DNA of 64,000 nucleotides from the NCBI GenBank assembly GCA_002633005.1, contig NMRA01000084.1, positions 775,267 to 839,266 of the forward strand, read 5' to 3'. This DNA is from Phoronis australis (Eukaryota; Animalia; Phoronida). Shown one piece after another: positions 1-62,085 of this stretch (the stretch's first letter is position 1; each line of letters opens with the position of its first letter). A program made the translations under genes and the position numbers. The notes beneath the pieces are model-generated. The model saw only the letters and a list, made by a program, of their open reading frames with translations, was not told where the DNA came from and ran no database searches.

Positions 1-2043
1 CCTGTTGACAGAACTCAAGATGTTGTTTAATTTTGATTCCATTTCTGTGTTTTGATATTCAGATTAGATAGACTATGTACTATCGAAGTGTTTTGTTTGT
101 AATTGTTTTCAATTGAAACAACATGTGGTTTCTTTGAAAGTGACTGGAGACTTCAGGCAGTTTAGGGACACAATTACTGGTAAATGATTTAACCAGAGTA
201 GTAATTTAAGACCATATCTCAAGCAGCATGCACCCTTTTCAAGCTTTGCAGCTGCCAGCAGACAATATTTTGACAATTTTTGATTGATTAGCATTTCCAA
301 CAAGGTTAGATACTTTGAAAAATTGAAAATATGCATTCTGACGGTTACATGTATTTGAAGTTGTCGACATTTTACCTTACTTTCCGTCTTCATGGTGGAA
401 AAAGTTGATGAGTAGTGAAGAATCTGTGAGCCGTGTTCATATGTACCAGAGTTGGTTCAAGCGAGCTGCGATGCTTAGTGCATGTTAGTCCCGGTGCAAG
501 TTTGTGAGTCAGGTAGTTGAGTTTATATGCTCATAAGTATGTGAAGAACTATGTATGTTTGTATGTGCTTGAGCCGTGTAGTCCGCGTCCACAGTCTGGA
601 ACTGTGCACCGTATGTCCACAAATTCTCTGTTCACCATTTTATTTTGGCATAAAAAGCAGAAATCGTGTCATTTTCCATTTCCTCTTGCTCATTTGCTAA
701 ACGGATTGGATATGAGGTGAACAGTTTTATTCTGTACCCTTATTGGCTTCCTCTGGAAACATGACTTGCATAATGTCAGTCTAGTTCTGTTGATTAAGTG
801 TTTTTGTTTGGTCACTGTGACTTGATTTTGAGAGTAACGATCTTAAGTATGACAGACTTCTGTTGATGCAAATGTGACCGCTGGCAGATCATTCCACCAG
901 TTTTCACTTCACCAAGCTGCATTTGGGTCATATGCTGGACTGGTGGTGTGTTGACTGTCAGGGATTTGTTGGACTCTGAAGGGGATTAGCAAGTGAGCTG
1001 TGTGGAAGGAAAATCAACAAGTGCCAGCAGAGACTGCAGCGTGTCGCCTAATGACTGGATCCAAATGTTTGTACCAATGACCATCTGTGTAGTTCACAGT
1101 CACTGTTAGACTGTACTTCTTTTCACTATCAGTCTGGAACTAAGTTACATCCTCCACGTTCACCATCGGAGTAGTAACCGGGCTGTGACACTGCCTGTCG
1201 CAGAAGCCATCATTGTTTTGGCTGGTACTCCCAACATCACTCCCCTACATTATGTTGGTGCCATAACTGAAGTGTGCTTCTAGGGTATTGATCTTTGTTG
1301 CTGTGTTTCTGTTATCACCACCCTTACAGTACCGCTGCTTTGGCAGAAACACGCTATCATTGGTCTACAGTGCAGTGTTAACAACACCGCAACCATAGTT
1401 CTACATCACTTCATACTTGAAGTAGTTGATTCAATGGTAAACACGAATGTCGCACTATTAGCCTAGTCGTATATCTGGTGTATGGTTATGAATATTTATC
1501 AATCTCAGGTGATAATATTTAAGAGTCACTTGCTGAGAGCGTCATCAGTTGTTTATCTTGACATCTAAGCACACTGATGCTTGAAACCTGACTGTTGATA
1601 AAGTCTGTATTTTGTATGTACTGTTTTTTCATTTTGTAATTCCACTTCAGTTCTTGGACTTATGATGGTTTTAGGGATGAGCATCAGCTCAGTAGTCACA
1701 AATATGGCCTTAAAGTTTTTGGGACTCTTAGTTCTGTGTATTTTTTTCTCGTTCACACATAACTCTTTCACTCTGTATCGAGATTGTATCAATTCCACCG
1801 TTTCTGTTCAGGGATGTGCACTGAAATCTTTTATTGCACTGCCTTCTGTGGGTTTTGTTGGCCTTTGGCTATGGAGCGAGAGTTGTATGCTGTGTAGTCT
1901 CCATCCCTTGACCCAATTGTCAAACTGTGTTCACCCCAGTTTGCCTTCTGCTGATGAATCCCCCAGCTGAACAGGTCATGAGGCTTTTGTTCCCAAAAGA
2001 CGGAAACCGACTGGAGACTAACAGGCTTTCACCTATTTTCCAG

Positions 2044-2453
2044 AGCCTGGAGGTTCAGAGGGGAACCGTTGTGTCAGTGGTCAGACCAAGCGGTCTTACA
2101 ACCAGTGTTCAATTTGCAACAAAGAGTTCGCCAGCGAGAAAGAACTAGTTTGGCACATGCAGTCGTGTGCCATTAGTGCCAGCTCAGAGACAGAGATGCG
2201 CTTCGTGTGCCCTGTTTGTCGCAAAGGATTCAAGTCAAAGGTCATCCTGAAGCAGCACCAAATGACGCACATTGACTTGCGCTTCAGTCCGTATAAGTGC
2301 GCAAAATGCGACCGGCCGTTCAACCGAAAGTCCAACTGCCTACGCCACGAGCTGCTATGCAAGAAACATACGCACGGTGGCTCCCTCATGCTCGATGAGA
2401 GCAATCCCGACACCAATCTTCTGGATTATCTGGGTGGAATGGATAATTACTAG
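2044..2453 (+). CDS. Zinc-finger terminal exon ZF-E1 (3 fingers: C2HC, C2H2, C2HC)
   Basis: Branch-like GACTAAC ~2016, acceptor ...ctattttccAG|2044, phase 1. Reads PGGSEGNRCVSGQTKRSYNQCSICNKEFASEKELVWHMQSC...FVCPVCRKGFKSKVILKQHQMTH-IDLRFSP-YKCAKCDRPFNRKSNCLRHELLC...; stop TAG 2451-2453. First in-frame ATG (2157) is at the end of finger 1. Confidence 0.88.
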
Positions 2454-2673
2454 TTTCCATTTGGTTCCCTTTCCTGTACCTCCTGTGCAGGTGGAAGCAG
2501 TTTTGTTGTGGTTACTGTTTCTTTTTTTTAAACCCCAAGTCAGAACTTTATGTCTTTCCCTAAATGACCGAGGTTCAGTGATATTTCATGAGGAAGCCCA
2601 ATATAGTCAGCCACCTTTCGCTTAACCACACTTGCACGCCGGTTTATCTGACAAGCTGTTATCCTCTTTGCAG

Positions 2674-3002
2674 ACTTCCTGTCGCACACTGTCCCCGTGG
2701 AAATGCCTGCCCCTGGCACCACCAAGTGTACCCAGTGCAAAGCCGCATTTGCCACACACGAGGAGCTGCTGTGGCACGTGCAGTCTCATGTAGTGACCAG
2801 CAGGGCGGCGCTGATGCACGTTTGCAACATATGCGGCAAATCATTCCCCGCCAAAGGGAACCTGAGACAGCACCAAGTTAGCCACATGGACAAGCGGTTC
2901 AGCCCGTTCCGTTGTGAGCGTTGCGGCAAGCGCTTTGTCCGAAAGCATCACTTGAAAGGACACTTGGAATCTGGAAAATGTGGGATGGATGATCACAACT
3001 AA
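2674..3002 (+). CDS. Zinc-finger terminal exon ZF-E2
   Basis: Acceptor ...atcctctttgcAG|2674, phase 1. KCTQCKAAFATHEELLWHVQSH...HVCNICGKSFPAKGNLRQHQVSH-MDKRFSP-FRCERCGKRFVRKHHLKGHLESGKC; stop TAA 3000-3002. Confidence 0.88.
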
Positions 3003-3644
3003 GAGGTCATCCTTGGTGGATCTGTATCAGAGAAATGTCTTGTGCTTCAGTCCTAAGCAACAGATGTAGAGCACCCTCTATTGGTGAAGTCGTGTACATC
3101 AGATTGTTTAGAGTTTACACCATGAACTATTTGAGTGCTTTAGTTGACGTTGGTTGTTATGGAATTAGCAAATGGCAGCAAATACACTCTGTTGCGAAAT
3201 AGTCTCCTTAACAGTATTTCATGTGGAATAGTTTCTGAAAGGAAAGTCAGTGAAGATATGCGGTGCTTGTTAATTTTTTTGGACTAATCTTGCTGGAAAG
3301 TGTATTGTAAAGTCGTGGTTCTGAAATGTTAAGCGAGGTTTTCTCAAACTATGTTAAACCGGCAGCTGCACCTTGTGTTATGTCTAAACTAATTTCAGCC
3401 AATAAATGGTAGGTTGTGTGCAAGTGTTGGCAATAAACATAACTTTAGATAAACGTGCACTTCTGTTAATAGAAATAACAGAAGTGACTGTCTGCAGTAT
3501 GGAATACTGGCCCCAACAATTTCAATGATAATGTGGCGCTAGCACACTGTGGAGGGGTCTGTGGCCTCTTGAGGTTGTGGTTGAAATGTGACATTCCTTT
3601 CCTCCATGGGGGTCTCTCTAATTGGTGGTTTTGTTATTTTCCAG

Positions 3645-3985
3645 TTGCTCTGTCTCTGGATGTCCCAGACCCCTCGGTTGGCCTAGTTCATGGTACTGAC
3701 AACTACAAGACATGCCCCCAGTGTAGTAAAACATTTGCGAAGGAGAGCGAACTGCTCTGGCATACGCAGACGTGCGCCATGGCGACCGACACAGAACTGA
3801 TGTTTGTTTGCCCCACTTGCCGGAAGGGATTTAAGTCAAAAGCAATACTCAGACAGCATCGGCTGACACACATTGACTTGCAGAACAGCCCATACAAGTG
3901 CCACTACTGTTTCAAACCATTCCCGCGCAAGTTTTGCGTCAAGCGACACGAACCAGGCTGCCCAGCTCGACCGCGACTGACGTAG
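3645..3985 (+). CDS. Zinc-finger terminal exon ZF-E3
   Basis: Acceptor ...ttgttattttccAG|3645, phase 1. TCPQCSKTFAKESELLWHTQTC...FVCPTCRKGFKSKAILRQHRLTH-IDLQNSP-YKCHYCFKPFPRKFCVKRHEPGC; stop TAG 3983-3985. Confidence 0.88.
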
Positions 3986-4344
3986 ACCAAGATGGTCGAT
4001 TTACTTAGTGACTTCCAATGGTGTCTTTTCCGAAGTGGGCGTTGCCTTAGAAACTGTCTTACCTAAAGGGTTATGTCCAGTACGAATTTACTTAAGTCAT
4101 GTCTGTGTGTCACAGTCGAGGTCTGTTCAAGAGTGGTCGTTTTCTCCCATCTAGAGAAGTCGAATTCTACTTGCAGGTTGCCTGTTTCATCTGACCTTGG
4201 TTAAGATGGGGACACTTGTAATCATCTGTATATTCTCTTCTGAATGCGCTCGGATTGTCGTTGTTCTCTCTGCACTCTGTAGTGGCGCTCTTCAGACGTC
4301 GCCAACCGGAACTGGGAAGTAATGAGGGTCTTCCTGTTTTGCAG

Positions 4345-4691
4345 ACCAGGCGGCGCTGCTGACCACTGCTCTTGTGGGGGATTCGTCTACCGGCAAAGAC
4401 TACTGCACTTGTCAGAACTGCGGGAAGAGACTGCCGTCCGAGAGACAGCTGTTGTGGCATATGCAGATGTGTACTGGGTCGATGGAGGCCGACACCATGT
4501 TTGCGTGCCGTGTCTGCCGCAAAGTGTTCAAAACTCAGCAGACGCTAAAGCAGCACCAACTCACGCACATGGACCCTCGATTCAGTCCCTATAGATGCGG
4601 CCACTGCGACAAACCGTTCAAGCGTAAGGCTCACCTCCAGAGCCACGAGTCCCGGTGTCCACGAAAAGAGAGCTTTGGCGGCATTCAGTGA
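4345..4691 (+). CDS. Zinc-finger terminal exon ZF-E4
   Basis: Acceptor ...cttcctgttttgcAG|4345, phase 1. TCQNCGKRLPSERQLLWHMQMC...FACRVCRKVFKTQQTLKQHQLTH-MDPRFSP-YRCGHCDKPFKRKAHLQSHESRC; stop TGA 4689-4691. Confidence 0.88.
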
Positions 4692-6383
4692 GGCGGGCGT
4701 GAAATTTGGAGCCCAGGATTATTGTCTTGCGTATTCTGGAGTCTTCTGGTGTTGTTAAGCGTTTTATGAGCTGCAAACTTTTGATAAGCCCCCCCGCCAT
4801 CACTACCCCAGTGTCTGTTTTTATTCCTTGTTGCTGTGCTAAAGACCAATTGTTTTAACGTTATCCGAGCAAATTTAGTCAAGCATTTTTCATTTTACTT
4901 TGATTAAGCAAGCGCATGTTTAGTAGCTGCAGTTTTATGATTGCAATGTTTTGTTGCTCTTAGTGCAGAAAAACCTATTAAGATATATACGCAATATAAG
5001 TATTTTCAAGATAAACTGAAAACACCCGTTTTACTCAACTCTCTCTCTCTCTGATGTGGAGTTGGTATGCAACGCATAAACATTTTCACTGTATCCTTCA
5101 CAAACATGTTCAATACGAACACTTGATTTCTTTTCATGTGTATGACTAAGGCCTTAATTTTGACAAACATGCTGTTTGAAATGGATAATGGAAATTTGAC
5201 GAGAATGCGTTTGCAGGTTGAGACTTAATTTATAGGCAGAGAGGTTATATCAGGTTATGCAATGTAGCTGGTGTGGAGTGAACGTTGGTGAGGGTGTAGG
5301 CTAGCTTTTGATAAGACGAGCAATAACGTGTGGGCGGAGGGTTGATTCTTGCGCGAACTACAGCAAAAATTTGTAAGACATGAGAAGTCGTCCGTTTGGG
5401 AAATGTGCGTCTGCGAGAGAGGAAAAGCGCGTGCGAGAGAATAATTCTGTGCATGACCAGGGAAGTCTAGGTGTCATGAGTTAACATCACGACAAAAGGA
5501 CGCCATATAGCAAACATCTGCGAGTTACCTTAATGTATAAACGTGGTGCATCATTGCTAATCAGTGTCTTTATTGTACATACTTCAAGGCCATCGACAAA
5601 TAGAACAGCAAATATTCGGAAATGCATTAAAGTGCTTAAAATCTTCACTACAGCAAACAAAAAACAAAAAAACAACCCCACCCAGCTGTCAAATTAGAAT
5701 ATCTGCAAATACTATATGAAGATACGTCAATTAGCTGATCTCGAGGTACGAGCATTTATGGGTGAAAACGTAGGCGTACTTCGTTGGATCAGGGACAATC
5801 AATCTCATTACTAGTCATTGTCCATTGTGTTGAGGGGGAAAGCCGTACACTGATGCTGTTCGATTTCCCGTTGTTTATGCTACGCTAAGGAATGCCGTGG
5901 CGTTACGTTTGTGGTGGGTGTGCCAACTTAGTATTTGACCAGGCTGCAGCTGTTTTCACTTTCCAGCGGGACATCGAAGAAGTGCGGATATGGCACGAGT
6001 AGTAAAAAAACTTGCTTGTTGGTACATGGCACACTGGCGCTGGTTACGCCCATATGTCACACTCACGTTCGTGGAGCTGAGAAGCTTTTAACTGAAGTTG
6101 CTCTTCTCGTTTTCTTGTTTTGGGATATTGAATTAAGGGTTATGATATGCAGTGCTATGTTTTATAATGCTAATAGTATAGTCAGTTGTCAAGACAGGGT
6201 AAACGGTGATCTGAAACACTTTGAAGTCTCAAGGAAAAAGTGAACGTAACCATCAGATAAGCAAAACGAGAAATAGTAATTTGTCAACTATTAGAGGAAC
6301 CTACAGTTTTCTCTCTATGAGCAGAAGCATATTAACTAATTTATACATTTTCATCACAGCTGGTTTATTAACTTTTTAATTTG

Positions 6384-6566
6384 CTAGCGTTTGGATAACT
6401 TCTGAATTCTGGTGCGATAAATACATTCTTTAGACTCCAATACAGTGTTCAAAACATATAAAATGAAACGCGTACAAAATGGGGAAAACCGAAACTGTCG
6501 GTCAGTATGAATGGGTCGCCCAGACTCAACAGTTAATCTATGATGCGATAATCTGAGTCGTGTCAT
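6384..6566 (-). mobile_element. Degenerate LINE (CR1/L2-group) ORF2 C-terminal relic
   Basis: Minus-strand translation TRLRLSHHRLTVESGR...RQFRFSPFC resembles the 'TKLRISSHxLxIETGR...RxCxxC' C-terminal motif of CR1/L2-group RT proteins; no RT core visible. Confidence 0.55.
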
Positions 6567-7165
6567 TTTATGAATATGTACAAATGGTAAATCCAGTATA
6601 ATTTATCAGATGATGCTTAGTTGAGCAAACTTGGAAATACTATCGTATTGTATCACATCTTGTGACATGTACATTTTACTGTAAAACGGATCTATTTAGA
6701 TTGTCGTGCATACTCCTACTATGACACGGGTCTATGGTTTCATGTTCGGGCTTTTTTAAACACCATCTCGTCATGATAAGCAGGTGGCCTGTCTTGGGAA
6801 TGTCACCGGTTGAAATACGTGTGGCAGCAGTGTCTCAGGCGGATTTGTTCGTATCGCAATGTTTTTGCGCTCTTGTCACAGATTTTTTCGACAAAGTTTG
6901 CGGTTTGAAAGGCTATAGAAAGTGGTTCACTCGTGTGTCTGGACTAAAATCGGCGGGGAAAAACGAAAGGCAGTTTGTGACGTATTGAAAAAAATATAAG
7001 ATTGAGACGGATTTGTTCATGATATTTATTGACAGGAAGAGCTTTCACGCCATTTTTCGTATCCCTTCCATAGTATTTTTTGTTTTGGTTTCTTGCTATC
7101 TGTTTTAGTTTTGCCTGCAACCCGTACTGTCCCGACAACTGAACGATGTCTTCATGTCTTTCCAG

Positions 7166-7554
7166 ACTTCCGGGCAGCGCTTCCTGGCGTGAAAGACAAG
7201 AACCGTTGCCCTACCTGCAACAAATGCTTTAGTTCTCAAGATGAATTAGTCTGGCATTCAAACACCTGTGTCGTCGCCATGGACACGGCCACAACATTCA
7301 TTTGTAACATCTGCCGAAAGGGTTTGAAGAGTGTTAAGTCTCTTCGGCGTCATCGACTGATACATGTCGATGTTCAGTTTAGCCCGTTCAAATGCCGTGC
7401 GTGTCAGAAGCCGTTCAGGCGATGTGATCACTTGCAGCGTCATGAAAAATCATGCCTGTTAAAATCTGCGAAAGACAATGCACAAACATGTACTTTATCA
7501 TCTAGCCAAGAATCTTTTTCGACGTTATCTTCAGATCAATCAACATTATATTAA
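7166..7554 (+). CDS. Zinc-finger terminal exon ZF-E5
   Basis: Acceptor ...ttcatgtctttccAG|7166, phase 1. RCPTCNKCFSSQDELVWHSNTC...FICNICRKGLKSVKSLRRHRLIH-VDVQFSP-FKCRACQKPFRRCDHLQRHEKSC, then a Ser-rich tail; stop TAA 7552-7554. Confidence 0.88.
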
Positions 7555-8328
7555 GCAGGAACCAACCTGATACAGTTGTTCTTTATTAATGCTGAAGCCT
7601 CGCCTAACGCTTGCCCGAAAGCGTGAGCATCGTGCGTGTAACACCTGTCTGTTACTTCAGCTAAGTCGCTTTACTGGTACCATGACACTGAATACTAAAT
7701 GGCATTGGCGATCTAATGATGATTTCTTTCACTTGCTGGTTCATTCTTTTGTATGCTTTGCCTTTCCTGTACTTCTTGCTCGGTGTCTTTCTGCTCTGGA
7801 ATTGTGTGAAGTGGTTGTTTTTGAAACCTTAGGTGTGCATCTCAAGTGTCTCCGTGTTGTTTCTTAATTGCGCGAGTCCGAGCCTCAGTTATGTGGCCAG
7901 TCGTGCCATTTTCAAAGTGCAAAAATTCGAGACTTGCTTGGCACAAACTCTGATATCTCTTGCCAAATCCTCTGCACAGCAGCTCAAGGAGAAATTCAGG
8001 TTGCATCACCCACATCTTGTACATAAACACGAAGTAAGCTCCTTTCTCACCCTGCTGTAGAAATCGTTTTCCATTTTGAGTCACACGATTGTCGTATGAT
8101 TGAGGGTCGAAGACGTGAAGTTAAAACAACTCTCTCGACAAAAATTAGACGGAACGGAAATGCCAGCCATGTTCAGCATGGGGTTGACTGTTGTAAATGT
8201 TTCCGGCTTTGTATCGTTGCATTTCTTGCATCACAATCGTCGTGGTCGTTAAGGTTTCTGTAAATATTCTGGATTCGAAAATATTTTTGCAAGGCTGGGT
8301 ATTCATTGGAAGTTTTCCTTTTTTCTAG

Positions 8329-8648
8329 ACTCCGGGTTGGCGCCACCAGTGTCAGCAGCAGGAACCAGTAAGACGTGCTCCAACTGCGGCTTGTCATTTG
8401 CCTTCGAACGCGAGCTTGTCTGGCATTTACAAATGTGTTCCGTAACCATGGGATCAGGCCGCACTTTTATCTGCCGTCTTTGTCATAAGGCTTTTAAATC
8501 CCACCGAAATCTTAAGCAACATCGGTTGACACACATTGATGTGCGCCTTAGCCCCTACCAGTGTAACTTTTGCGAAAAACGATTCAAACGTAAATTTCAC
8601 GCGAACAGACACGAAACAACTTGCCCAAGCAGGCCATCTGTTAAGTAA
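8329..8648 (+). CDS. Zinc-finger terminal exon ZF-E6
   Basis: Acceptor ...ttttccttttttctAG|8329, phase 1. TCSNCGLSFAFERELVWHLQMC...FICRLCHKAFKSHRNLKQHRLTH-IDVRLSP-YQCNFCEKRFKRKFHANRHETTC; stop TAA 8646-8648. Confidence 0.88.
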
Positions 8649-9032
8649 ACGCGGCTTTTAGACATTCCATACAACATTGCTAACAGATGAAACAGGGAAC
8701 AGCTTTTCAGTATTAATCTCACTTTTTGTTTGATAAGTTGTTCGGCGCAAGGTGTTGAAATTCGGCGAAAAGCCAAGGTTTTATCGAAGACTCTTCTTGC
8801 TGCTGAATGAGTATGTGGGTGTGAACGTGGTTCGACTGAGCAGGCATGTGGGGAGTTTAAGAGATGGTCTTCTGTCGCGTTAGCATTTTAATGATACAGC
8901 AGTTTGTAGTGAGGTGGCAGCTGGTGACATGTCTTCCTGACAGGCGATTCGCCTTGGTCTTCTGCGAGGGTCTTTTTCAAATTTGTCGCTGTTTAATTAC
9001 GTTTCGCACTCACGGTCTCCTTTTGTTTGTAG

Positions 9033-9343
9033 ACCACCAGCTGACGGCCCCCCACGGTTCTAACACTTGTCTTCGATGCGGTAAAAAGTTCAGCTCCTCT
9101 CAAGATCTGACGTGGCACATGAAAACGCACGAGATCACGAGCCAGACGGCGCTGATGTATGTTTGTGATATATGTCGCAAGTCGTTCAAAACAAAAGCCT
9201 CTCTCCGGCAGCACCAGCTGGGTCACATGGACAGGAACTTCAGTCCCCACCAATGTCGTATATGTGGCAAGAGATTTGTCCGAAAACACGTGTTTCAGAA
9301 GCACGAGGCCAAGTGCGTGCTGAAGAGAAATGCTGTCGTGTAA
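9033..9343 (+). CDS. Zinc-finger terminal exon ZF-E7
   Basis: Acceptor ...ctccttttgtttgtAG|9033, phase 1. TCLRCGKKFSSSQDLTWHMKTH...YVCDICRKSFKTKASLRQHQLGH-MDRNFSP-HQCRICGKRFVRKHVFQKHEAKC; stop TAA 9341-9343. Confidence 0.88.
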
Positions 9344-9981
9344 CGCTATGGACTGGACTTTCTGCTAAACAATGCCCATAGACTATCGTTCTTTCCGAAT
9401 TGTTTTTTGAGCTTAGGACGCCAATGATGAGCTTCCTTCAACTGCCTACAGGTGTACCTGGCTAATAGATACTATTGTGTGTGGTTTTCTGAAAATACTA
9501 ATTGATCGACCATCTCTTTTTCACGTTGTCTTTCTCTGTGAATGGATTCTGAAGCAGGCGTATTTCATACGAAGCTTGCTGTGGCTTCAGTTAGTCATTG
9601 GTTTTCTTCTTGCGTCGACAAGGTTACTAATAGTGAGCTGCAAGTCGTGGATGATTATAGGGTGTTATTTTCTTCTGAGGATGCGTATTTTCGACGTTTG
9701 GTTTTTCATTATTGAGGAATACCAGTGGTCTTTTAGTTGATATCCAGTTGCTCCGCATTCCAGTTACCAATCCTACTCTCTGCGTGACCCATATCACTTT
9801 GTTGCGCGTGGCTGTAGGAATGTTGCCTGGGATTCTCAATGTTGAGTGCTCAAAGGAAATTGTTATCGTACTGCTCTTCAGGGGAACGTGTGCCTAACTT
9901 GTCTGTGACTTAGAAACTATCGTTCTATTTCAGCTAATTGTTGGGATCGCAATTGAGCGTGTTAACATTTTGTTTTTTTAG

Positions 9982-10340
9982 AAGTCGGACCATTGGATCC
10001 CCAGTCCATTGTTACGTCGCCTGACGGCTTACTTCTATGTCCCGAGTGTGGCAGATCCTGCACTGATATGCAAGACCTCAACTGGCACATGCAATCGCAC
10101 GTGATGAAAATTGAAGCGGAAATGACGTTTGTCTGCCACGTGTGTAAAAAGGCGTTCAAGTCGCGTGCAAGTTTGCGTCAGCACCAAGTGTGCCACATGG
10201 ACAAAACGTTCAGTCCATTCCAATGTAAATGTTGCGCGAAGAAGTTTGTCCGTAAACAGGATCACCAGCGTCACGAGGACAGATGCACGAATCGAGCTTT
10301 CTCCGAATACCAGGCCAGCCGTGGAGTGCTACCGCAATAA
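9982..10340 (+). CDS. Zinc-finger terminal exon ZF-E8
   Basis: Acceptor ...cattttgtttttttAG|9982, phase 1. LCPECGRSCTDMQDLNWHMQSH...FVCHVCKKAFKSRASLRQHQVCH-MDKTFSP-FQCKCCAKKFVRKQDHQRHEDRC; stop TAA 10338-10340. Confidence 0.88.
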
Positions 10341-13300
10341 TTGGGAGGCGACAGACTGGGTGTGTAGATCACCAAGTTGGCCGTTTTTCTGCCTGGATTC
10401 TTTATGAGGAGAATTTCGCGGAGAAAGTTGATAAATAGCTGCAGAGGGCCGCCTGGCTTATTTTGAAGATAACGTCTTATTTGCCTGTTGAAGCCTGTTG
10501 GCGTTTCGTGCATAACCTTTTTCAGGTTTTGTATCCATGTGTGGACTTCTCCGTTCGTTCGCTGTTATTATATTGGTAGAACTTTCGCTAACAGTTTTTT
10601 AGATTCCACTAATGTTATATGTCACAGCATGGAATCCCAGCTACTAACTTAACTGGGCTATTGGTTCCCCATTGTATATATTCACTGTTGTCACGTCCTT
10701 GTGTTTTCGCTTCGATTGCTTTTAGCAGTCACCTGAAGCACTTTTGTCCCGAGTCGCCGAAAACGTGCTGAAGTGAGGTGACGATTGATGGATTGAAGGC
10801 ATTCTGCTCTAGTTTTGATCTCCGTGTAGATATTAATCGGGTCACTTTGGTCCATCTGTTGCTTAGTTCTCTCGTTTTCCCAGAACTGTTGATTTTCAGC
10901 GTCTTGGTAATATTCATTAATTTATTCATTCCTGCCTAGCAAAGTGCACATAGTTAAGTAGATTAATTACTGTTACTTAAGCCAACTCTGTAAACGTTTT
11001 TAAGCAAACGCTGTTGCCTATTGACTTTGGTATATTTTTAATTGACAGCAAATATGTTGTAAACGAAATGTAGCATTTTATTTTGTAAGATCCTAAATGC
11101 GACTGGGTAATATTTTCGTTAGAACGTCGTCTAGTAAGCATTTATTTTGTGCAAACTGGAGAGCGTTCCGTAGACCTCGTTTCTTGAGTATTTCGCGAGT
11201 GTGCTCAAGAGCTTACGAGTCTGCCCTGCAAAATAGCGATCACTGAAGTGATTGGTCGATGAAGTTGAAGTGCTGATTACTGCTCTGAATTCAGTGATCG
11301 TTTAGTGAGGATTTTTCGCCGTGGGTGCAAGCTGATTACATGGGTCTGCGGAACTCAGCCGTGCAGAGGTTACGACTTGCTGTTACTGTCTTGTATGATG
11401 AGGTGTTGATTTTAGATGTACGTGACATCACTTCATACTGGTTAACCGCTGTGTTTCACATGCTGTTGCAACGTTTTTACCGTTGCTGTGGGTGTTATAC
11501 TGCCGCGCAAAACTCCCACCTTGGAAAGTTACCAAAACGTATTTCCTCATACGGGGCTTGGAATTTTCCTCTTTTGAGAGTATTTCCTCATTTTTGGTTT
11601 CAGTTTCCTCTTATTTGATTTCCAGTTTTCTCTCGATCGTCTCTTGTTATCATTATTTTGACTTTATTCGTTCAGAAACGGTTTTTTTTTTTTCATTAAA
11701 ATTTTACAACACAAAAATTATTTCTATCACACAAGCTATTTATTTGTGGTAACCATACATCACCTAGAAAATTTTATCTTTTTGTTATCGGTCGTTCCAA
11801 TCCCTGCTCATGTTTCGTTCAAAACGGTCACGTGTATTTAAACACAACATGGACAATATTCTTCAACCCAAGATAATCTGAACACGGAGACCATTTTGCC
11901 GAAATTACCTCTGACACAAGAGGTTAGTAAAGAAGCTGGTCACGTGGCTTGTAGGAAGTTTACGTCGTGGATGTTGTGGTAGCTATTATGCTGGATGAGG
12001 GCAAGTGCTTAAAATGCAAAACATTGTTTGCTCTTTGCAACATATTGCTATAGAAATTCTGGAAATCGTATTCGTAAGGGTATTTCTTCTGTGTTCAAAT
12101 TACAACCACGCTACTCCAGAGAAATAGACGTTAATTAGTGGGTACTTGCTTGGTATTTGGTACCGCCTGCCGTTGCAGGGGAAGCGAATTTTTCAGAACG
12201 TCTTTCTGTTGGTCCTGGTCTGGTTTCGAACTCCACTTAATGCCAGTCTATGCCCTGTAATTTGTCGAGTAAAGCTGTTTTACTATGGCAGCACGTGGTT
12301 TACTTCGCCCGGTCAACTGGCTAAGACATCGGGTTGGCTTGTAAGTCAGACGTCTACATCGAGAACCAATCAATCAAATGAGTTAACTGATTGACCCGGT
12401 GTTGCCCGTCGCACTCGTTCGAATTGATTGATCGTCGCTTATCGACATTTTCAAAAGCGTGGTCTTGTACTGACATCTCGAGTCCGTGAGGGTTACTTCG
12501 TAAAATGTTACTTTCCCAATAAATCATTACCTTCGACATATTGAGAAATGTCCAAAAGCTTTCCCCCATGGTAGGTTCTGAAAGCTTTTGAGAATGTCGA
12601 TTCTTTTGCATATCCTTTAGTATAATGCGGTTATACATGTATGTAAGTTTTTAAGGAAATAAAACACATTTTGTAGTTAAGGAACTTTTGGATTTCAATT
12701 GCGTAAAGATTACATGCTTGAATAAAGAGTATGTTTATTTTTGCCGGTAAATATGCTCAAACTCTGTACTCCACCACTTCCTTTCTGACCACCTATCCGT
12801 CGTAAATTTTGGAACCCCGGTGGCCACCAGGCTCCCGTCCCCGGCTGACATTCCTATTTATTGAGGTCATTGGTCTCCCGCCACCTGCGGCTCTACTTCA
12901 GAGCGGCAGTGAAATCTCTTGCATCTACCTAAAAAGCATTGTTATTTAGCAGTCAAACAAAGTCACCATTATTATGTGGTGTTTGGGTGGCCGGTTCTCG
13001 AATTAATGTGCTTTGTTGTTATTTTTTTTATTTTACTACATTTATTTTCCTACAAATTATAATCAGTGAAGCCTCCAGCTACATACAATTTGAATAGTAA
13101 TCGATTAATAACACAAAATTACATATTACTAACAATGTAGTGGAATTAGAGCATGATTTTGTTTTGGAGAGGAATGGAAAGGAGGGGTCGATACTTACAC
13201 TCTCATTTGCAATCGCGCTATCTGGGATTGCCCGTCGACGTTACTATTTGCGTTTTCATCCATTTGTCTACGTAAACGTGTTTGTAGTTTATATTTGCTC

Positions 13301-13722
13301 ATCATGGTCAGAAAACAATCAAACGTTTTCCATGGCCTTGTTATTGACATTGTTTAGTATCATTTTTAAATATAGTTTAATACCTGTTTGTTATAATCAT
13401 GGAACACATTATTCCACGATGTAGTTCATCCGTGTGAACGATTGTGGGTGCACAACGTTGAATTTATTGAAACGCCTCGCGTTCAATCCCATCCGTGTAT
13501 ATCCGTTCGGGTCATTTTGGCATGATATTTCGTGCCAGTGGTGACAAGTAAAAAATTCAGTTCTATCACTCTGAGTGACGTTGCGCTAATAATAATTACA
13601 AGGCGTGTTGTAGCGTAAGTTTCATTTAGTTAAAATAACTGATGTGTTGTCAATGTTTTTCGCTTGTTGCATTGGAGAGGTCGTGCCGTTTGTGTGATCA
13701 TGTCCCTCTCGCTGTTTTGTAG

Positions 13723-14075
13723 GGACGCCGACTAAAAAAATGAATTCTGGCGCTCCCAGGGTGGTTACCGGCGGGACATGCACACAGTGCGACAAGTATT
13801 TCTCCAGTCTCGAGGAGATGACGTGGCATGTGCAGTCGGAGCACGTAGTTGCCGTGGAGGCAGGGTCAATGTTTATGTGTACCACGTGCCAAAAATCGTT
13901 TTCGTCTAAATTCCAGTTGAAGCGACATCAGTTGTGTCACGTGGACAAGTGTTATAGTCCGTTTCATTGTCGCGTATGTCAAAAGAGGTTTGTGCGAAAG
14001 TACGACGCCAAAAGGCACGAAGCTACGTGTAAAAAGGGAAACACCTTGGAGGCACAGTTCGACCTTCGCATGTGA
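13723..14075 (+). CDS. Zinc-finger terminal exon ZF-E9
   Basis: Acceptor ...ctctcgctgttttgtAG|13723, phase 1. TCTQCDKYFSSLEEMTWHVQSEH...FMCTTCQKSFSSKFQLKRHQLCH-VDKCYSP-FHCRVCQKRFVRKYDAKRHEATC; stop TGA 14073-14075; AATAAA at 14213. Confidence 0.88.
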
Positions 14076-14956
14076 TGATTTTGGCTGCGGTTTTCCCTGA
14101 GCGTTAACAATTCGTTCTTTTGTTCTCAGCTTCTGAAATTGTCTTTGGAACGTCGAACGTCTTCGGTCGTCACTATCTCTTCATCTGCTTCACCGATTCG
14201 TTCCCCATCGCCAATAAATCTCACCATAGAAGACGTAGCTTAATTCAGTTAATAGAAATAACAGGATATTGATAGGTCAAGCGGGCCTGTGGGCGCGGCC
14301 CTTGCCTGCCGGTCGCTGATTGCGGGCGCATTCTTTTGCTCTTCTTGAATACAGACATGCGAGGAGACCTTAGTTGTAAACATTTTTAATGCGTTAGTGG
14401 CGCTTTTGATCGACTATCTTTCTCGTTTGTACCACAGTTCTTTGTATTTTTCCTGTATGTTTTGTATCTTTCCATTATTATATCTCCTATTCATGGTCGT
14501 AATATAAGAGCTTTTATCGCCTGCCTGCGTCTTGTTTTAAGGTAGTTTCGTGTACCCATTTGGACTCTGTTTTTTCATCACGCGTGAGTCAGACGTATAC
14601 TTGTTTTTTTCTTATCGCCTTATGTGAATCTAGCCTGGCACTTTTGTTCACTCATCTTGTAATCTATATCACATTTTTATATTTTCCTGTCCATTTTTGT
14701 ATTTTTCTGTTGTCGCTTTCGACTGCGTCTTGTTTTAAGAAGATTCGTAACTCGTGGACCCGCCTGGCTTTCGTGTTTTTCAGTCACACGCGCGAGTCCT
14801 TCGATCATAAATGTAACTTTGTGGCGTTGTGAGAGCAGAAAAACGTTTTTCGCTTGACCCTATGTGTATTTCTGGTGTGCAATGAGACCGGCGGAGTTGG
14901 CTGAGCCAAAACGCAATTTCTTTCATGTACGGAAATTTTGAAACATTGTATGAATC

Positions 14957-15264
14957 CATGCGCGCACCCAAGGGGGGAGCTCGGGGGCTCGAACGAATCC
15001 ATGTGCGCACCCAAGGGGGGAGCTCGGGGGGCTCGAACGACCCCCCCCCCCGCCCATTTGGCGAAGTGGACAAAAAGATCCGCCTAAGAGAAACAAAAAG
15101 TCCGAGAAAACGAGACAAAAAGTCCTCTGAAAAGGCGCAAACGCACAATTTACAGCTCTGTACGTGGTATCCCGTTTTTTTAGTCGTTCGGCTTTTTTGT
15201 CGACAAAAGGTCCATGTCGTCGGAAATTCGAGTCCCACCATATTAAAGGCTGCGTGTGCGCATG
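14957..15264. mobile_element. Non-autonomous hAT-like MITE with duplicated left end and 5-bp TSD (GAATC)
   Basis: Left end CATGYGCGCACCCAAGGGGGG... occurs twice (14957, 15000), each preceded by GAATC; right end ...CTGCGTGTGCGCATG (15264) is followed by GAATC. Confidence 0.65.
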
Positions 15265-15846
15265 GAATCGTTTAAATATCACATCACACAGCAGTGCATA
15301 TTTGATGGTGTGATCGTCACTCAGAATTTGTATAAAATCGCTGGGAAATATTCTTCTACATTAACTCTAAACAAGACTGCAGAACACTCAGTATCCACCA
15401 GGGACTACAGGCACTGTCGCCGTCTTACGACAAGAGCTACTGCATCACGGACTGGAGTATTTCTGTTCACGTCCGGATGTAGTATTTTTCCAAGAGAATG
15501 AACTCTATACGGAATAACCCTGTCCTGAGAACAAGTCAGCCTCGTACCAAGCCTTAAGATGGTGTTGATCCGTTTAGCCATTTGGCTGGTACCATTATCT
15601 TGAGGCTTGGGGACGAGGCAGGTTCACCAGTTTCCTTAGAAATCACGGTGTCGAGTTCGATTCCGCTGCATTCTGGCGAACTTCACGTTACTTTATTTGT
15701 TAGGCACCTTCACGCTATGACGAAGTGGTTCAGCACAATATACTGGCGTTCTTTTTTACTTTGTTCGCTGGAGTTCGCTTAACCCCTCTGAATTTGTTGT
15801 CATTAGTTGTCAGCTCAGATTTCCTGGGAATTTCGAGCGCGTGTAT

Positions 15847-15999
15847 CAGTGGCGGATTTAGAGGGGGCCATGCCCCCCCTAAAATTCTCCGAGATTCCAT
15901 TTGGCAATTCGGGGGTGTGAATGTCTGACGGGCAATATCTTGGCTAATACTCTGCCCTGCCCCCCCCCCGCCCAACTTAAAATCCTGGATCCGCCCCTG
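15847..15999. mobile_element. hAT-like MITE, copy 1 (CAGTGGCGGAT...ATCCGCCCCTG)
   Basis: Short TIRs, G/C runs, and an internal sequence (ctaaaattctcc.agattccatttggca...gacgggcaa) shared with 27843-27985. Confidence 0.7.
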
Positions 16000-18362
16000 T
16001 GTCGGGTTTTAAAATTTTTACTTTCGTTGTCGTGTGGCAGCGCTTAACATATATTTTCAAGTTGCGGGCGATGGTGAGGCGAAAATGGTAATCACTTGGT
16101 CAAGGGCTTTACAGCTAGCAGGTGGCGCTGCTCGTACCGATGGGACTGGGACAATGACTTTGTTTGTGATTGCGTGGCTTTCAGAGAGTATCTAATCGTT
16201 TTTGTGAATAAGCTGACAATAATTCGTTATAGACGTCAATCTTAATTGTCTACATTGGTTGGAAGTCGCACATTTTCTTCGGCGGCTTGGTCGTTGGTGC
16301 GGAAATTCATTCTTTTTGTCACACATGTTGTGGAAGTTAGAAGTAGAACTTGTAGCCAATTGTTTAAAGTGTACATGTATATCGTTACAATCAATCGTGT
16401 TAGTAGGCTAAATGCCACGTCACCGGGATTGGGCGCCTGTACAGAAACGTCTCAGTGACAAATTACCGGTGAGCGAAAATGCAGTGTATTAAAAATGAAC
16501 ACCAACGGAGGATTATTTCTACTATTGACAAGCTGTAACATTGATAGCAATTTAATATCAGCGAGAAAGACTGAAGTCTGAAGACTTTATCTTTGTTTGG
16601 TTTTCATAGTTGTATGCTCCGTACAAAAAGTGGTCCGGCAAATCACAGCCTCGGCATCATAGCTCTGTAACTCAGTATTCAGCCCAGCAATATGAGAATA
16701 TTCAGCGAGCTGTAAAGCACCACGTGACTTTTTATTCTGTGCAGTGCCACCTATTAGCGGCAATGTCCTTGGTCAGAGTACGTATGGATTTGTCTTCGTC
16801 TTGCTCCTTGGTCTAGTGGGCCCTTGTCTGATCTGACAGTGCTAACGTTGTCAAGAAGAAAACGGACGTTGTTCACTTTCTTTTGGTGAGGTCCGTTTAT
16901 TCTAGCTGGTTTGTTTTGTTCAGAATTTCTGTCAAGTAGCCTAAACGCTCTATTGTTATGAAATTGAAACAGGTTTTGAATCTTTATTTCAACTCTCAAA
17001 TGAAAACTTCACGAATTGGCCGAGTCAGATGTTTTGACTAGGGTTTTTTTGTATTGGAAAGAAACTTACCAAGACGCAAAGTACCCATCGGTCGGGGCTG
17101 GATTTTTTCAGATGGCATGGTTCACTGGTACGGCCGCCACCCCATTCTTCGCTAGTGACATCTGCGGAAATATACTGACAACGTTTTTGATTTTTTCTGT
17201 ACCGATAACTTTTGAGATTTTTTAATTAAAAGCAGTTTGGCAAGAGAACACCATAACACCATGAGATGGGTTATTCAAAAATTGGAATGCGAATGCCTAT
17301 TTGATGGCTATAGAACGATTCACCTACTCTGTGTTATTCTTTTTTGTTAATTGCTTATTCGTTATTCAAATTTTAACAGTTTCACTTTTTCCTGGCATTA
17401 GCTATTACTTAGCTTCCTGTGACATTTGGAAAACGATTTGCAGTTCAAATAATTCATTTTCTTGGGTGACTTTTGAAGCTTTTCTCATTAATAACAATTG
17501 GTAATCGATTGAGTAGTGTTCACTGAGCAGTGGGCTCCGTCCGTCAAATTGAGGTTCTGGTCACGTCACTACTTGTCATGTTTCCCTTATTGAGAGTCTA
17601 GCGTTGTTAATACAGCGTAATTCTGTAGACCTCACTTAAGATTGTTTGAATATATTTCCCTAAAAACTGCACATGCACTGTTGTTGTGCAAAGGACTGTG
17701 ATTTTTTACCCGTATCTCAAATTTACTCTGCCATGGAACCTGAAAAGACTCAGCTGTTCGCTCCCGGCAAAACCCCTGATAAGGTACTATGTTAGTTCTA
17801 AAGAACATTAGATTCGTGGCTGAAGACATCTGTGTTCTTCGTTTCCTTTCTCTACATTGTTCACCATTCTTAAGTCAATGTGTATGTGTAATAGACCCAG
17901 CTACATGTAAGCACCGTAATTTTTTCGCACGTCATCTGGAACAATTGGAAGTTTAAAGCTTTGAACCTGATGTAGACCCGCACTTTGTATAAAAATGTCT
18001 TGATTTAGACCACTCGCGGTATTTAAACTGGTCTTGAAGTTTTTCTAACATATTAGGAGAGATTTCAAGTCCTGGGAAAAACCTTATTCCTCGTTAGCTC
18101 CACCTGGCGGGTTGTTTTATGCTCCTGATATGGTCACAAGCAACAACTGTTCTTTCCATGCATTCTCAGAAATTCTGTCGTTCTGTAATCTGAGCAAGGA
18201 ACGAGCTGAATGCCCAACATCAGAAGTTAGCATTTTGGGTTAAAGGTTGGTTTATAGTAGGATTCATATGACCCTTGACTTTCAGTAAAATTTTGCAGTC
18301 ACCCTTTGTACTGTTGTGCCGCCGTTGGTGTTTTGTCTTCTCACCGTTTTGTTCACTTACAG

Positions 18363-18703
18363 TTAACCCGTTAGCGAACGTCGATCTGTCGTCACTGAAG
18401 TGCCCCGAGTGTTCGAAGACGTTTGACTCCCGGGACAAACTGGTGTGGCACATGCAGAGCCACGCTGTGGACAAAACGAGTCAGGAAGTGAAACAGTTCG
18501 TCTGCTTCATTTGCACCAAATCGTTTGGAACCAAAAGTCATCTCAAGCAACACCAAGTGTGTCATATGGATAAAAGTCTAAGCCCTTTCCAGTGTAAAGC
18601 TTGTGGCAAGAAATTTTCTCGCAAGCAGCACTGGCAGATGCACGAAGCCAAGTGTTTGAACAACGCCATAGCAATGTTCCAGGCTAGCAAGAACAATCAC
18701 TGA
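18363..18703 (+). CDS. Zinc-finger terminal exon ZF-E10 (last of the array)
   Basis: Long pyrimidine tract, acceptor ...gttcacttacAG|18363, phase 1. KCPECSKTFDSRDKLVWHMQSH...FVCFICTKSFGTKSHLKQHQVCH-MDKSLSP-FQCKACGKKFSRKQHWQMHEAKC; stop TGA 18701-18703. Confidence 0.88.
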
Positions 18704-19808
18704 CATAACTGCAAATTTTGAAAGGGGCTTATGGCATTGGCTATTTTTGTTTATCATTGTTATCCAAAATACAGGGCGCATTTACAATAGCGCCCACTAG
18801 TCGACTTTCAAAGCAATATTTGCATATATTTTCAAGACATGAAACTGATGATATACTAGTCAGTGAGCCCTGAGCAGTAGGAGAAAATTTTGTGAGTACA
18901 TGTATTTTCTGTTTTACCTGACAGTTTGCTTTCTTGCTGCCTAAACAGAGTCACCTTAGACAAACATATTAAGATTTGCACTGTAAAGCTACCTCTAGTT
19001 AAATCAATTATTGAAATCCTTTTGAAAACGGATTAATTTTGGCACACTATGTCAGTTTTTTTACTTTATTGGCTTTGATTGTTTGCCCTATTAACTGAAT
19101 TTCTTAGGTCAGCCGATCTATTTTTCTATTTTTGTCTTTAACTGCTGCTAATCTGTAAAACAAAGTGAGTGTCACCGCCTTATTTCTTCCGTTATGGTCG
19201 CCTAACCAGAGGCGCCGCAAAGATGTTGAATTTACATGAGTAGTGTAAAACTTTTTCTAATTAAATCATTGGTTGATCTCGTTTTGAAAAAGGCTTAATT
19301 TTGTCGCACGGCGTCAGTTTTATGATTATATCTTTTGAATTATTTTCCTGTCCACTGGTTTTCTTACGTCCACGGAGTTGATTACCTCAAATTTTAGTGT
19401 TTAATTGGTTTTTATACAAAAAGTACACCGTTGATTTTTAATGCTTTTTTGTGATGCTACTGGTGTTTCCGGTGGAATGAGAAAAAGTACTTTCACTATT
19501 TTAGTTTTTGATTTTTATAGCTCAATCAGTGTCACATATGAAGGTTCCGTTTGATTTTCTCGAAATCGCGCCAAGTTCAAGACTACGATTACCAACCTGC
19601 ATTTCACTACATAGAAATTGCGTTGTATTGTTAGGATTGTGATGCAAAAAAACAGACTACATATTTACATAATAGTTTGTGACCTTTGTTTAGTTACTCG
19701 GTGAAGAAAACGGGGTACTTGTTGATTTATTGTTGTAGGTAATGTGTATGTACACTGTATTGTAGTAATATTGTTTCATGTGACATATAGATATTCACGA
19801 TAGTGTGA

Positions 19809-19814
19809 AATAAA
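19809..19814 (+). terminator. Candidate distal polyadenylation signal of the zinc-finger locus
   Basis: AATAAA at the end of a ~1.1-kb T-rich stretch after the ZF-E10 stop. Other AATAAA seen at 3401, 3432, 12518, 12658, 12721 and 14213. Confidence 0.45.
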
Positions 19815-21112
19815 AAATGAATTTAAAAAAGGCGTTAAGAAAAAACTAAAGCGAGAAGTGCTTTCCTTGATAAAGTCAGATTTGCCGTTTTAGCGCGAAT
19901 GATGTCACATATGTCTATGTGTTTAGGCCTTTTTTATATGTAGCACTGTCGCGTTGAGATGTTTGATGCCGCGTGTTATAATAAGAAAATTCAGCGCAGA
20001 GTTAACATTTTCGGAATTATGAAATATTTTATTTGAAATGAAAGTAATGTTCAGATGTTTTGCATGCTTTGCGGCATTTTTGGCTAACTGTGCCGAACGT
20101 CCTCAAAGGTACATTATCGGCGAGAAAGTAAATGCTTTCTCAAGTGACCTATCTCCTCAGATAGAGCCCATCTCTTTGCCGTTTAGCTAAAACCCTTTCG
20201 TTAGTGGCCGAACATTGCCTTGTTTAATACAGGCATTGATTTCAGCAAATGCCTGACAAAGAACGGCGAGAATTGGTGATTTGGCATGACATCGCAACAC
20301 ACAACGATTTTGTTTTTTATATTATACCTCTGATCATAACTATTACTAAGAACTTAAAGATTTCTATCTCATCCAATGGTATTTTCAAAAATATGTTTTT
20401 CGACCTTAAGACCGCTAATGTCACTCCAAGTATGCAGTCGTACATGTATAGGCGTGTCTGGACTTTGCTAATGCCGTTTGTGGTGCATGTGACCTGGATT
20501 TGCCCGAATTTTATCAACCTGTGCCGAAATGCTCCGAACTTCGATTTCTTAAAGCGAGAGATCAAAATTAGTGGCAAAAGTGTGCTTTATATGAATACTA
20601 TATGAAGACGTATTATTTACAATACAGTTCAGTTCAAAATTGTACATCAACAAAAAGAATGTTTTTAAAATACCACACAGTGTAAAATGACATGTCACGA
20701 TAGCAACGTCTCTAAAAATGCTGAATATTGTGCTGCCTCTTCGTCATACCAACATTTTAGTCCGAGCGTATTACTGAAAAGGCAGACATCAGTCTATGTG
20801 TATTCAATATTTTCAGTGTAATTTTATTGAGATAAAGATATGTATCGTTTGCACGAGTTTTTCATTTCCAATACCTTGGTAACTTAAAGAAACTTCGTCC
20901 TTTGTAGTTTTGTTCTGAACTTGGACAGGAATTACCCGTAGCGACAACAAAAACTACCGGTTGGCTGAACCTTCGCATGATCTTTTTACGAAGGTGCGTA
21001 GCTGTAGCTGTACACAGAGGGCGCTAGTGCAGGCGCTTGGTAGAGAAATCAAATATTCTTTGACAGCAGACGACTACTGCATTGTTGCCCGTGCAGGCTG
21101 TTCATCTACTAT

Positions 21113-23731: not shown

Positions 23732-24349
23732 TCTGGCGGACAGACAAAAAATACCGTTGAAAAGGTTTAGCCCAATTATGGTAAAGTTGCCATCTTAAAT
23801 CGGATCATGAAAAGACAGGCACTGGAAATGAGTGCATGCATAACACTCGTCGAGTCGCAGTGCTTCCAGGGGTCTGGAGAAACTAAGGTACCCTAGAAAT
23901 ACCAACATTGGTATATTTTGTTCTGTTTGTTTTGAAAAAAAACATGTGATGTTGAAAGGACAACGTTTGACTGAGAATGCGTTTTGTTTTAACAATATTG
24001 GTTTGATTTCAATTAATTTGAAAGCCAAAGACTTTCACTTCTCTGCGAGCAGTGTATCACCTTTACATTGTTTTGGTATGAGTTATTAAAAACAGCATTT
24101 AAGAATAAACTCTGATTAACATAAAGTACTGGATGACGGGACACAACAGGAAAGAAGACCCGACTCCACGTTTTACATTTCTTGTTTTCCGCAAGAATTC
24201 CAACCGTTTCAGCGCTCATAATTTGTAGTTTATATAAGCGTGTGCCCATCGGTTGTTCGATGTGCTTTCTGTAGCGGGCAAGACAGGAACGGCACCAACG
24301 GTATTTAGTGGAATTGCGTCAGCCTTTATCAAACCTGTTGGTGTATGTT

Positions 24350-24917
24350 TTACCCATATACTTACAGAAACACAATTCGGTACTTTTTGTAATGAACAAC
24401 ATTACATGTAGGAATAAATGAAAGTTGTCAGCACTTCATCAACTTTCGCATTGTACAAGATTTCTGAAAGGAATTCGAACAGCTAATGCAAAAGTGTCGC
24501 ATTCAGCTTCCCAACAGTCTCTCTTACGATCGAGTTATTCTTGGACTTTACGAGACACATGATTTTCTTTTTAACATTTTGCTTCTAGTTGCCAAACAGT
24601 ACATTTACAAGGAGAGTTGTCACAAAAATATACCTAATTTTCACAGGTTTATTACACATACTTATGAGTACTACGATGCTGAAAAATTAATTGCATACGA
24701 AAACTTTGTTTATGACAGCTTCTCTGCGAAAGGGCAAAATTTCGTTGTTCACGTTAACTACATGTAGAAGTTATTTACTTTAATCGAGATACGAGAATGG
24801 TCTCTCCTGGGGTGCGCATGCGTATTACTAAATGAATGGATGTACTTATTTGTTTGTTTGTTTGTTTTTGTACTGTTTTATAAATGATAATAAATTCTTT
24901 AAAAAAAGAAAAGAAAA
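24350..24917 (+). mobile_element. 5'-truncated L1/Tx1-type LINE 3' end
   Basis: ORF 24486-24767 VILGL...FLFNILLLVAKQYIYK...PNF...EKLIA resembles the Tx1/L1 ORF2 C-terminus; followed by (TTTG)n, AATAAA and an A-rich tail at ~24900-24917. Confidence 0.65.
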
Positions 24918-26258: not shown

Positions 26259-26527
26259 TGGGTGAGTGTTACGCTCGTAAATTACGTGCGGAAATTAATT
26301 CTTGTTAGTGGCGTAAATTAATTATCAATGGCGTGAATTAATTATTAATGACGAAAATTTATTATTTGCATCGTGAATTAACTTTTAACTGCGTCAAGTT
26401 ATAGTTTGCGGCGTAAATTAATTTTTAACGGCGTATTTGCGGCGTAAAGTAACTGTTAACGTCGTAGAAGTACGCCTTTAACAAGAATGAATTTGCGCAC
26501 GTAGTTTATGTGTGTAGCGTTCACCCA
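26259..26527. mobile_element. MITE with ~57-bp TIRs and internal 20-bp minisatellite
   Basis: TGGGTGAgtgttacgctcgtaaattacgtgcggaaattaattcttgtta is the imperfect inverse of the 26470-26527 end; about 8 degenerate GGCGTAAATTAATTATTAAT units start at 26310. Confidence 0.65.
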
Positions 26528-61970: not shown

Positions 61971-62085
61971 GTATAACCATTTAGAACCTGGAAGAATTTG
62001 TTCAACTTGAAAATTTATCTGGGATTACCAGAAATTAGTAAGGAAATTTTTTCGCATGTACATGTAAAGCAATTCATTTCCACAG

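Follow-up and report, generated by a model that had tools for sequence, protein, structure and literature searches.

An array of ten zinc-finger cassettes

The DNA analyzed here, hereafter the window, is a stretch of 64,000 nucleotides from contig NMRA01000084.1 (positions 775,267 to 839,266 of the forward strand), which contains towards its 5' end an array of coding cassettes with three zinc fingers apiece. A six-frame motif scan and a profile search of the 64-kb window identified exactly ten such cassettes, all on the plus strand between 2044 and 18703, in agreement with a first-pass annotation of the sequence that had listed ten paralogous same-strand segments with these starts. In the profile search, with stop codons read as X, the ten full cassettes scored 118–128 bits; no decayed or additional copy was recovered from either strand of the 64 kb, and non-cassette sequence never exceeded 4 bits. 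Measured from the predicted splice acceptor to the stop codon, the cassettes are c1 (2044–2453, 135 codons), c2 (2674–3002, 108 codons), c3 (3645–3985, 112 codons), c4 (4345–4691, 114 codons), c5 (7166–7554, 128 codons), c6 (8329–8648, 105 codons), c7 (9033–9343, 102 codons), c8 (9982–10340, 118 codons), c9 (13723–14075, 116 codons) and, as the last of the array, c10 (18363–18703, 112 codons). As had also been claimed, each of the ten ends in a stop codon of its own.

All ten cassettes match the Pfam zf-C2H2 domain above its cut-off. Their cores are 39–59% identical to each other at the amino-acid level, and share 19 invariant residues, among them a tryptophan immediately N-terminal to the first histidine of finger 1 and those of an H-x-D-x3-S-P linker joining fingers 2 and 3. 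Finger 2 is of the C2H2 type and finger 3 of the C2HC type throughout; finger 1 is C2HC in c1, c3, c4, c5 and c6, and C2H2 in c2, c7, c8, c9 (with an H-x4-H spacing) and c10. The split between these two finger-1 sets is the sole well-supported branch (99/96) of the cassette tree. In a self-blastn of 1–20,500, the cassette regions align to each other in their coding parts alone (66–76% identity), and three further matches represent repeats unrelated to the cassettes. This comparison revealed no paralogous exon between the cassettes and upheld the earlier statement that the intervening DNA does not align.

According to the standard recognition model for C2H2 fingers, the residues at helix positions -1, 2, 3 and 6 contact the bases. 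These contact residues differ among all ten cassettes in finger 2 and likewise in finger 3, with the exception of a constant arginine at -1 of the latter. Because the contact positions differ in this manner, fingers 2 and 3 would be predicted to read different DNA sites in each isoform. Finger 1, in contrast, has a tryptophan at +6 in all ten cassettes and an aspartate or glutamate at +3 in eight; these features suggest that it is a poor reader of bases and more likely mediates a protein contact. An AlphaFold model of c2 displays three canonical fingers (predicted local distance difference test 82, predicted template-modelling score 0.40) with no confident packing between the fingers, and the folds closest to it are DNA-bound fingers of ZBTB proteins, HIC2 and CTCF, with TM-scores of about 0.5 and root-mean-square deviations above 10.

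Homologue searches with the cassettes returned generic zinc-finger proteins only, with 62 matches among 1982 longer candidates, one among 116 of near-cassette length and one among five for c2. The best 150 of 128,755 representative matches are all poly-finger proteins, a ranking that would mask an orthologue with a single cassette. None of the 213 retrieved proteins contains the linker in the form H-x-D-x3-S-P-x2-C, and the best single domain among them scores 58 bits, whereas the cassettes reach 124–134 against their own profile. Two further sequence look-ups gave nothing resembling c2 or c10. Four metagenome loci show a generic likeness of at most 35 bits, and the Atlas search recovered just generic C2H2 clusters.

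Across all 45 cassette pairs, the proportion of synonymous differences (pS) has a mean of 0.83 (range 0.66–0.99) and that of nonsynonymous differences (pN) a mean of 0.37 (range 0.28–0.45); since pS has this mean and never drops below 0.66, synonymous divergence is mostly saturated. More than one codon is used at 18 of the 19 invariant residues. Among the 40 of 246 read differences listed, six fall in cassette-coding sequence, of which five are synonymous and three occur in the contig run X1 (see below) alone. The first-pass annotation had proposed that the array is old and subject to purifying selection, and this is supported by frames and zinc ligands that remain intact at saturated synonymous sites and by pN being lower than pS. 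One might instead see the cassettes as dead remnants of duplicated zinc-finger exons passively transcribed in a long untranslated region (UTR), as the weak coverage of c5, c6 and c10 (depth about 1–3) would allow; however, a frame of cassette length remains open with a probability of only 0.03 after 30% neutral substitution, and the persistence of ten such frames with their ligands despite the saturation makes this explanation extremely unlikely. The array is real, old, selected and, as detailed below, transcribed.

Predicted splice acceptors, RNA coverage and 3' ends

A pyrimidine tract and a YAG lie in front of each cassette, and the earlier claim that these acceptors are uniformly in phase 1 holds for all ten: six CAG and four TAG lie 11–22 codons 5' of the first cysteine. 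A generic 3' splice-site model, not trained on the cassette acceptors, chooses the same AG in nine of the ten when searching within 100 nucleotides of finger 1, the miss being c4, where a CAG 5 nucleotides 3' of 4345 is chosen instead. With this 100-nucleotide search, the probability of at least nine of ten acceptors falling in any single phase is about 0.001. The ten acceptors all score at least 2.7, the same score being reached by 20% of random 100-nucleotide windows. A YTNAY branch-point motif is found at -27 to -17, a range picked post hoc, in seven of the ten acceptors versus 29 of 152 control YAG sites (19%), and GC content increases across every acceptor. In the region from -200 to -30, the signal for a shared selector motif was too weak when compared with three shuffles (8-mers common to eight of ten acceptors versus 5–6; 10-mers to seven of ten versus 6–8); likewise, no inverted-repeat family tying several acceptors to one site was found, and an Rfam search gave no match.

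In seven of the ten cassettes, c3 and c4 among them, the open frame 5' of finger 1 contains no in-frame ATG at all, which agrees with the first-pass annotation in that most segments lack one. Of the rest, c7 has two in-frame ATGs, both upstream of its acceptor, and c2 and c9 have one each, 3' of theirs. The shortest gaps between cassettes measure 220–384 nucleotides, and none of the gaps in front of c2, c3 and c4 contains a GTRAG donor.

To the region 1–19,500 we mapped, at 90% likeness, three stranded raw-read runs of one study (X2, X3 and X4), of each of which 18–19% was read, along with the contig run X1; depth was computed in bins of 650 nucleotides, such that exact edges are below resolution. 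In all cassette bins the first mates map to the minus strand, which by the usual library convention indicates plus-strand RNA. Sense depth is low before four of the cassettes, at 0–1 for c1, 0.4–0.7 for c5, 0–0.5 for c9 and 0 for c10 (16901–18200), and increases in the acceptor bins. It reaches 1.8–6.6 over c1 (bin 1951–2600) and 11–37 over c2–c4, with 14–31 at 2843 in c2, which is among the best covered, 11–15 at 3808 in c3 and 16–26 at 4372 in c4. Further downstream the values are 1.0–2.9 for c5 (bin 7151–7800), 0.9–2.8 in both bins spanned by c6, 2.9–4.3 for c7 (bin 9101–9750), 6.1–7.4 for c8 (bin 9751–10400), 3.1–3.4 for c9 (bin 13651–14300) and 1.3–3.0 for c10 (bin 18201–18850).

Among the 15 of 17 joints listed for 1–19,500 (those with at least four reads), there is no GT..AG joint to a cassette or between cassettes. 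In 1–1950 there is also no exon with a depth equal to the summed depth of the cassettes and no stretch deep enough for a common exon. Given these two results, either the donor for c2–c4 lies outside 1–19,500 or c2–c4 are unspliced. Because each of the ten frames ends in a stop and no joint between cassettes is listed, a single multi-finger protein chained from the cassettes is ruled out.

Two further observations concern the reads themselves. Antisense reads within 7151–9750 cover c5–c7, with a depth of 6–11 over 7151–9100 in X2 and X3, and are absent from X4; sense depth over c5–c7 is just as low in X4, and hence there is no evident repression by the antisense RNA. Short interspersed repeats at 6118–6158, 11554–11755, 14950–15260 and 15860–16000 draw hundreds of reads from foreign transcripts.

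The distribution of polyadenylation (poly(A)) signals and of coverage suggests that the cassettes have fewer 3' ends than acceptors. No AATAAA or ATTAAA occurs in five of the nine gaps (c1/c2, c3/c4, c5/c6, c6/c7 and c7/c8), and two gaps are devoid of any of twelve hexamer variants. RNA coverage stops near 3401/3432, near 5000, near 12500–12720 and past 14213. The first of these places coincides with a pair of plus-strand AATAAA signals (3401 and 3432, spanning 3401–3437), which likely marks a common 3' end of c1 and c2, depth being down to 6–16 by 3334. For c3 and c4, whose gap has a depth of 4–12 as estimated from bin means, a common 3' end likely lies near 5000. Depth is at most 2.1 in the bin 5201–5850, and the first canonical hexamer downstream of c4 is at 5626. 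Three plus-strand AATAAA signals at 12518, 12658 and 12721 (12518–12726) likely serve as the common 3' end of c5–c8, behind a putative 3' UTR of 2.3 kb within which the repeat at 11554–11755 sits; sense depth declines here from 7–13 in 10401–11050 to 1.8–5.1 in 12351–13000 and 0–0.5 in 13001–13650. Finally, c9 is followed by an AATAAA at 14213, and c10 by an ATTAAA at 19260 and an AATAAA at 19809. With no canonical signal in five of nine gaps, it is probable that about five 3' ends serve all ten acceptors. The signals and coverage together point to what are probably five groups of nested acceptors with common 3' ends, namely c1–c2, c3–c4, c5–c8, c9 and c10. The description of the cassettes as ten alternative terminal exons in the first-pass annotation therefore likely stands insofar as they are alternative 3' ends of one gene, but probably not in giving each cassette a separate 3' end, about five groups being the better reading.

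These features also bear on whether the cassettes belong to a single gene. Tandem clusters of C2H2 genes are common in animals, and the array could likewise consist of small, independent zinc-finger genes that each have a promoter and a short upstream exon to themselves. Paralogues of this kind would inherit a common intron phase, c2 and c9 do possess ATGs, and some gaps hold weak candidates for a donor with an ATG. However, the start or upstream exon and the 3' end that every copy in such a cluster would have are not seen here, with no ATG in seven of ten cassettes and no canonical signal in five of nine gaps, including gaps of just 220–384 nucleotides. Moreover, c2, c3 and c4 have no consensus donor before them, c3 and c4 have no ATG either, none of the joints listed within 1–19,500 involves the well-covered cassettes, and the stretches between cassettes contain no homologous upstream exon. 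We accordingly regard separate genes as quite improbable. Closely spaced same-strand frames with acceptors and without local donors are also typical of outrons, which the layout of the array resembles, and it might thus be an operon-like unit resolved by spliced-leader trans-splicing at every acceptor. Against this, eight of ten cassettes have no ATG from the acceptor to finger 1, such that the leader would need to bring the start codon. The flatworm spliced leader that supplies a start codon ends in AUG and yields phase 0, whereas the acceptors here are in phase 1. Further, the five gaps without a canonical poly(A) signal lack what would be required to separate the cistrons, and this explanation is very improbable.

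A proposed upstream constant part and the rest of the window

We consider it likely that the array provides the alternative 3' ends of one gene, the constant part of which lies upstream of the window. Such a constant part had been postulated by the first-pass annotation, and the idea gains indirect though convergent support from the acceptor phase, strength and branch points, which go beyond chance expectation, and from the missing ATGs, the donor-free gaps before c2–c4, the sense RNA and the lack of a listed internal joint. In the mechanism we propose, which presumes a common donor and cis-splicing, a phase-1 donor at the end of the constant part would be joined to one of at least ten acceptors; from whichever acceptor is used, a frame for three zinc fingers would run to a stop of its own, and the locus would constitute the variable 3' end of a gene for a transcription regulator. 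The choice of the 3' end would first limit the cassettes present in the pre-mRNA, and the choice of an acceptor inside the group would then set the protein, with the downstream cassettes of that group remaining as 3' UTR. The last base of the donor exon is probably not T, which would generate stops in c1 and c8, and is most likely G, which would result in an aspartate or glutamate at seven of the ten junctions.

The region 5' of c1 (1–2043, plus strand) has a sense depth of 0–2.1, and none of its 27 frames of at least 40 codons matches a Pfam domain; more broadly, no Pfam domain, BTB included, was detected in the 86 open frames of 1–2043 and 18704–36600. The minus strand of 1–2000 contains long broken frames with no Pfam match. 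The observed-to-expected CpG ratio of 1–2000 is 0.40 (0.24–0.50 per 500 nucleotides), the lowest of the 32 2-kb bins of the window, and rises to about 1 by 5000. This depletion, which fades over the array, is consistent with a methylated gene body, here perhaps an intron, that enters from upstream, a reading based on gene-body methylation as described in the available part of PMC4378273.

The same proteins could also arise by the route known from mod(mdg4), in which each group of cassettes would have a promoter to itself and its transcripts would be trans-spliced to a separately made constant part. The about five 3'-end groups here can be set beside the five mod(mdg4) clusters with independent promoters described in the accessible portion of PMC13490949; furthermore, no donor for the cassettes is seen within 1–19,500 among the listed joints, and antisense reads cover c5–c7 in two of the three raw-read runs. 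However, all ten cassettes are on one strand, and where outrons might appear, RNA depth is 0 upstream of c10 (16901–18200) and does not exceed 0.7 upstream of c5 and c9, although the libraries may lose outrons. The scant upstream sense coverage and the CpG depletion fit a single long pre-mRNA. We therefore hold trans-splicing to be unlikely.

Several observations weigh against alternative 3' ends spliced to an upstream constant part. No read was seen that joins an upstream exon to any acceptor, and among the 24 of 487 loose read ends listed none lies at an acceptor; those listed are at repeat-like places, and they neither demonstrate nor rule out splicing. An X1 contig (4308–4907) runs unspliced through the c4 acceptor, which is compatible with a read-through UTR or DNA and equally with no splicing there. 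The phase-1 picks of the acceptor model fall to eight of ten with a search of 150 nucleotides, seven of ten at 200 and five of ten at 300. The gaps before c1, c5, c6, c8, c9 and c10 each have one weak phase-1 donor with an in-frame ATG upstream, and c2 and c9, with an ATG past the acceptor, could be translated on their own. Finally, the CpG depletion in 1–2000 could instead stem from a decayed methylated repeat.

Beyond the array, the next plus-strand gene begins at about 36548 and encodes chitin-binding CBM14 repeats. This gene (36548–44600) probably codes for a secreted protein, with a signal-peptide-like first exon at 36548–36614; its CBM14 (peritrophin-A) exons alternate within a tandemly repeated unit some 1.1 kb long, the copies of which are 85–95% identical including their introns. 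One more, diverged CBM14 exon is found near 62.1 kb (61977–62366, plus strand). A THAP-domain frame on the minus strand at 52593–53033 (Pfam E-value 2.4e-9) lies inside a pair of 326-nucleotide inverted repeats with 87% identity (51923–53262), and the combination probably represents a P-like DNA element or what is left of one. Three short minus-strand frames at 21829–22828, which have no Pfam match, resemble a broken DNA-transposon protein; the CpG ratio of this stretch is likewise low (0.55). Runs of N at 45793, 50050–50075 and 57515–57582 total 95 bases and are distant from the array.

Comparison with lola, mod(mdg4) and generic C2H2 arrays

The genes broad, fruitless and tramtrack, like lola, are Tramtrack-group BTB-zinc-finger genes with variable zinc-finger ends. 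The feature typical of lola, several zinc-finger 3' segments with their own stops in one acceptor phase, is also seen in the present array, where all ten are in phase 1. In both loci a constant part, which in our case is presumed, is followed by numerous alternative 3' ends that each bring a separate finger module and stop. For lola, the accessible text of PMC11426971 gives 20 isoforms, 17 of them with distinct C2H2 ends. The likeness extends to the fingers, with fingers 1 and 2 of c1, c3, c4, c5 and c6 following the C2HC-C2H2 order that the portion of PMC1947980 available to us describes for lola L and T. However, the cassettes differ in being uniformly three-fingered, in having a C2HC final finger, and in the invariant finger-1 tryptophan and the H-x-D-x3-S-P linker, and no BTB domain is visible within the window. 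The lola-type finger pair can be ruled out as the identity of the cassettes, as all ten have three fingers and end in C2HC.

With mod(mdg4), the array shares clustered variable 3' exons and a constant part, again presumed here, that serves all isoforms. As far as the available parts of PMC13490949 and PMC4667647 describe it, mod(mdg4) has about 30 isoforms, mostly with FLYWCH ends, trans-spliced from five promoter-bearing clusters of 3' exons. In that gene the variable exons are on both strands, whereas all ten are on the plus strand here, and the array shows no sign of cluster promoters or of trans-splicing. FLYWCH was excluded as the cassette type: none of the ten cassettes matches it at E-values up to 0.01, and all ten match zf-C2H2. 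Generic C2H2 arrays such as those of ZBTB24, HIC2, ZBTB7A and CTCF have the same three beta-beta-alpha fingers and provide the best matches in both sequence and fold. Yet the best single stretch among the PDB alignments listed scores about 49 bits, a generic likeness only; moreover, the linkers of the cassettes exceed TGEKP in length and two of their three fingers can be C2HC.

By analogy, then, the array would work like lola and mod(mdg4). In the literature found, the published cases of a transcription factor with exchangeable DNA-binding ends are arthropod BTB genes, and within a coverage of titles and abstract openings, which leaves most subscription papers outside, no description of such arrays outside arthropods was found. 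The TTK-type BTB is itself reported as arthropod-specific in the available text of PMC11426971, with none found outside arthropods. More tentatively, and somewhat on the doubtful side, we propose, in line with the independent system that the first-pass annotation had thought possible, that the array belongs to a lola counterpart that evolved separately outside the arthropods and has no Tramtrack-type BTB. It would have at least ten isoforms predicted to read DNA with an undescribed family of three-finger cassettes, a two-tier choice of the poly(A) site and then the acceptor, and an antisense transcript over the weakest group that varies between individuals. With a host from outside the arthropods and a constant domain other than a TTK-type BTB, the locus would represent a convergent origin of the strategy seen in lola and mod(mdg4). 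It would also offer a compact test case for the choice among many competing 3' acceptors, and gene predictors would overlook nine of its ten products. Were the host an arthropod and the constant domain a TTK BTB, the locus would merely be an unusual new lola-like one.

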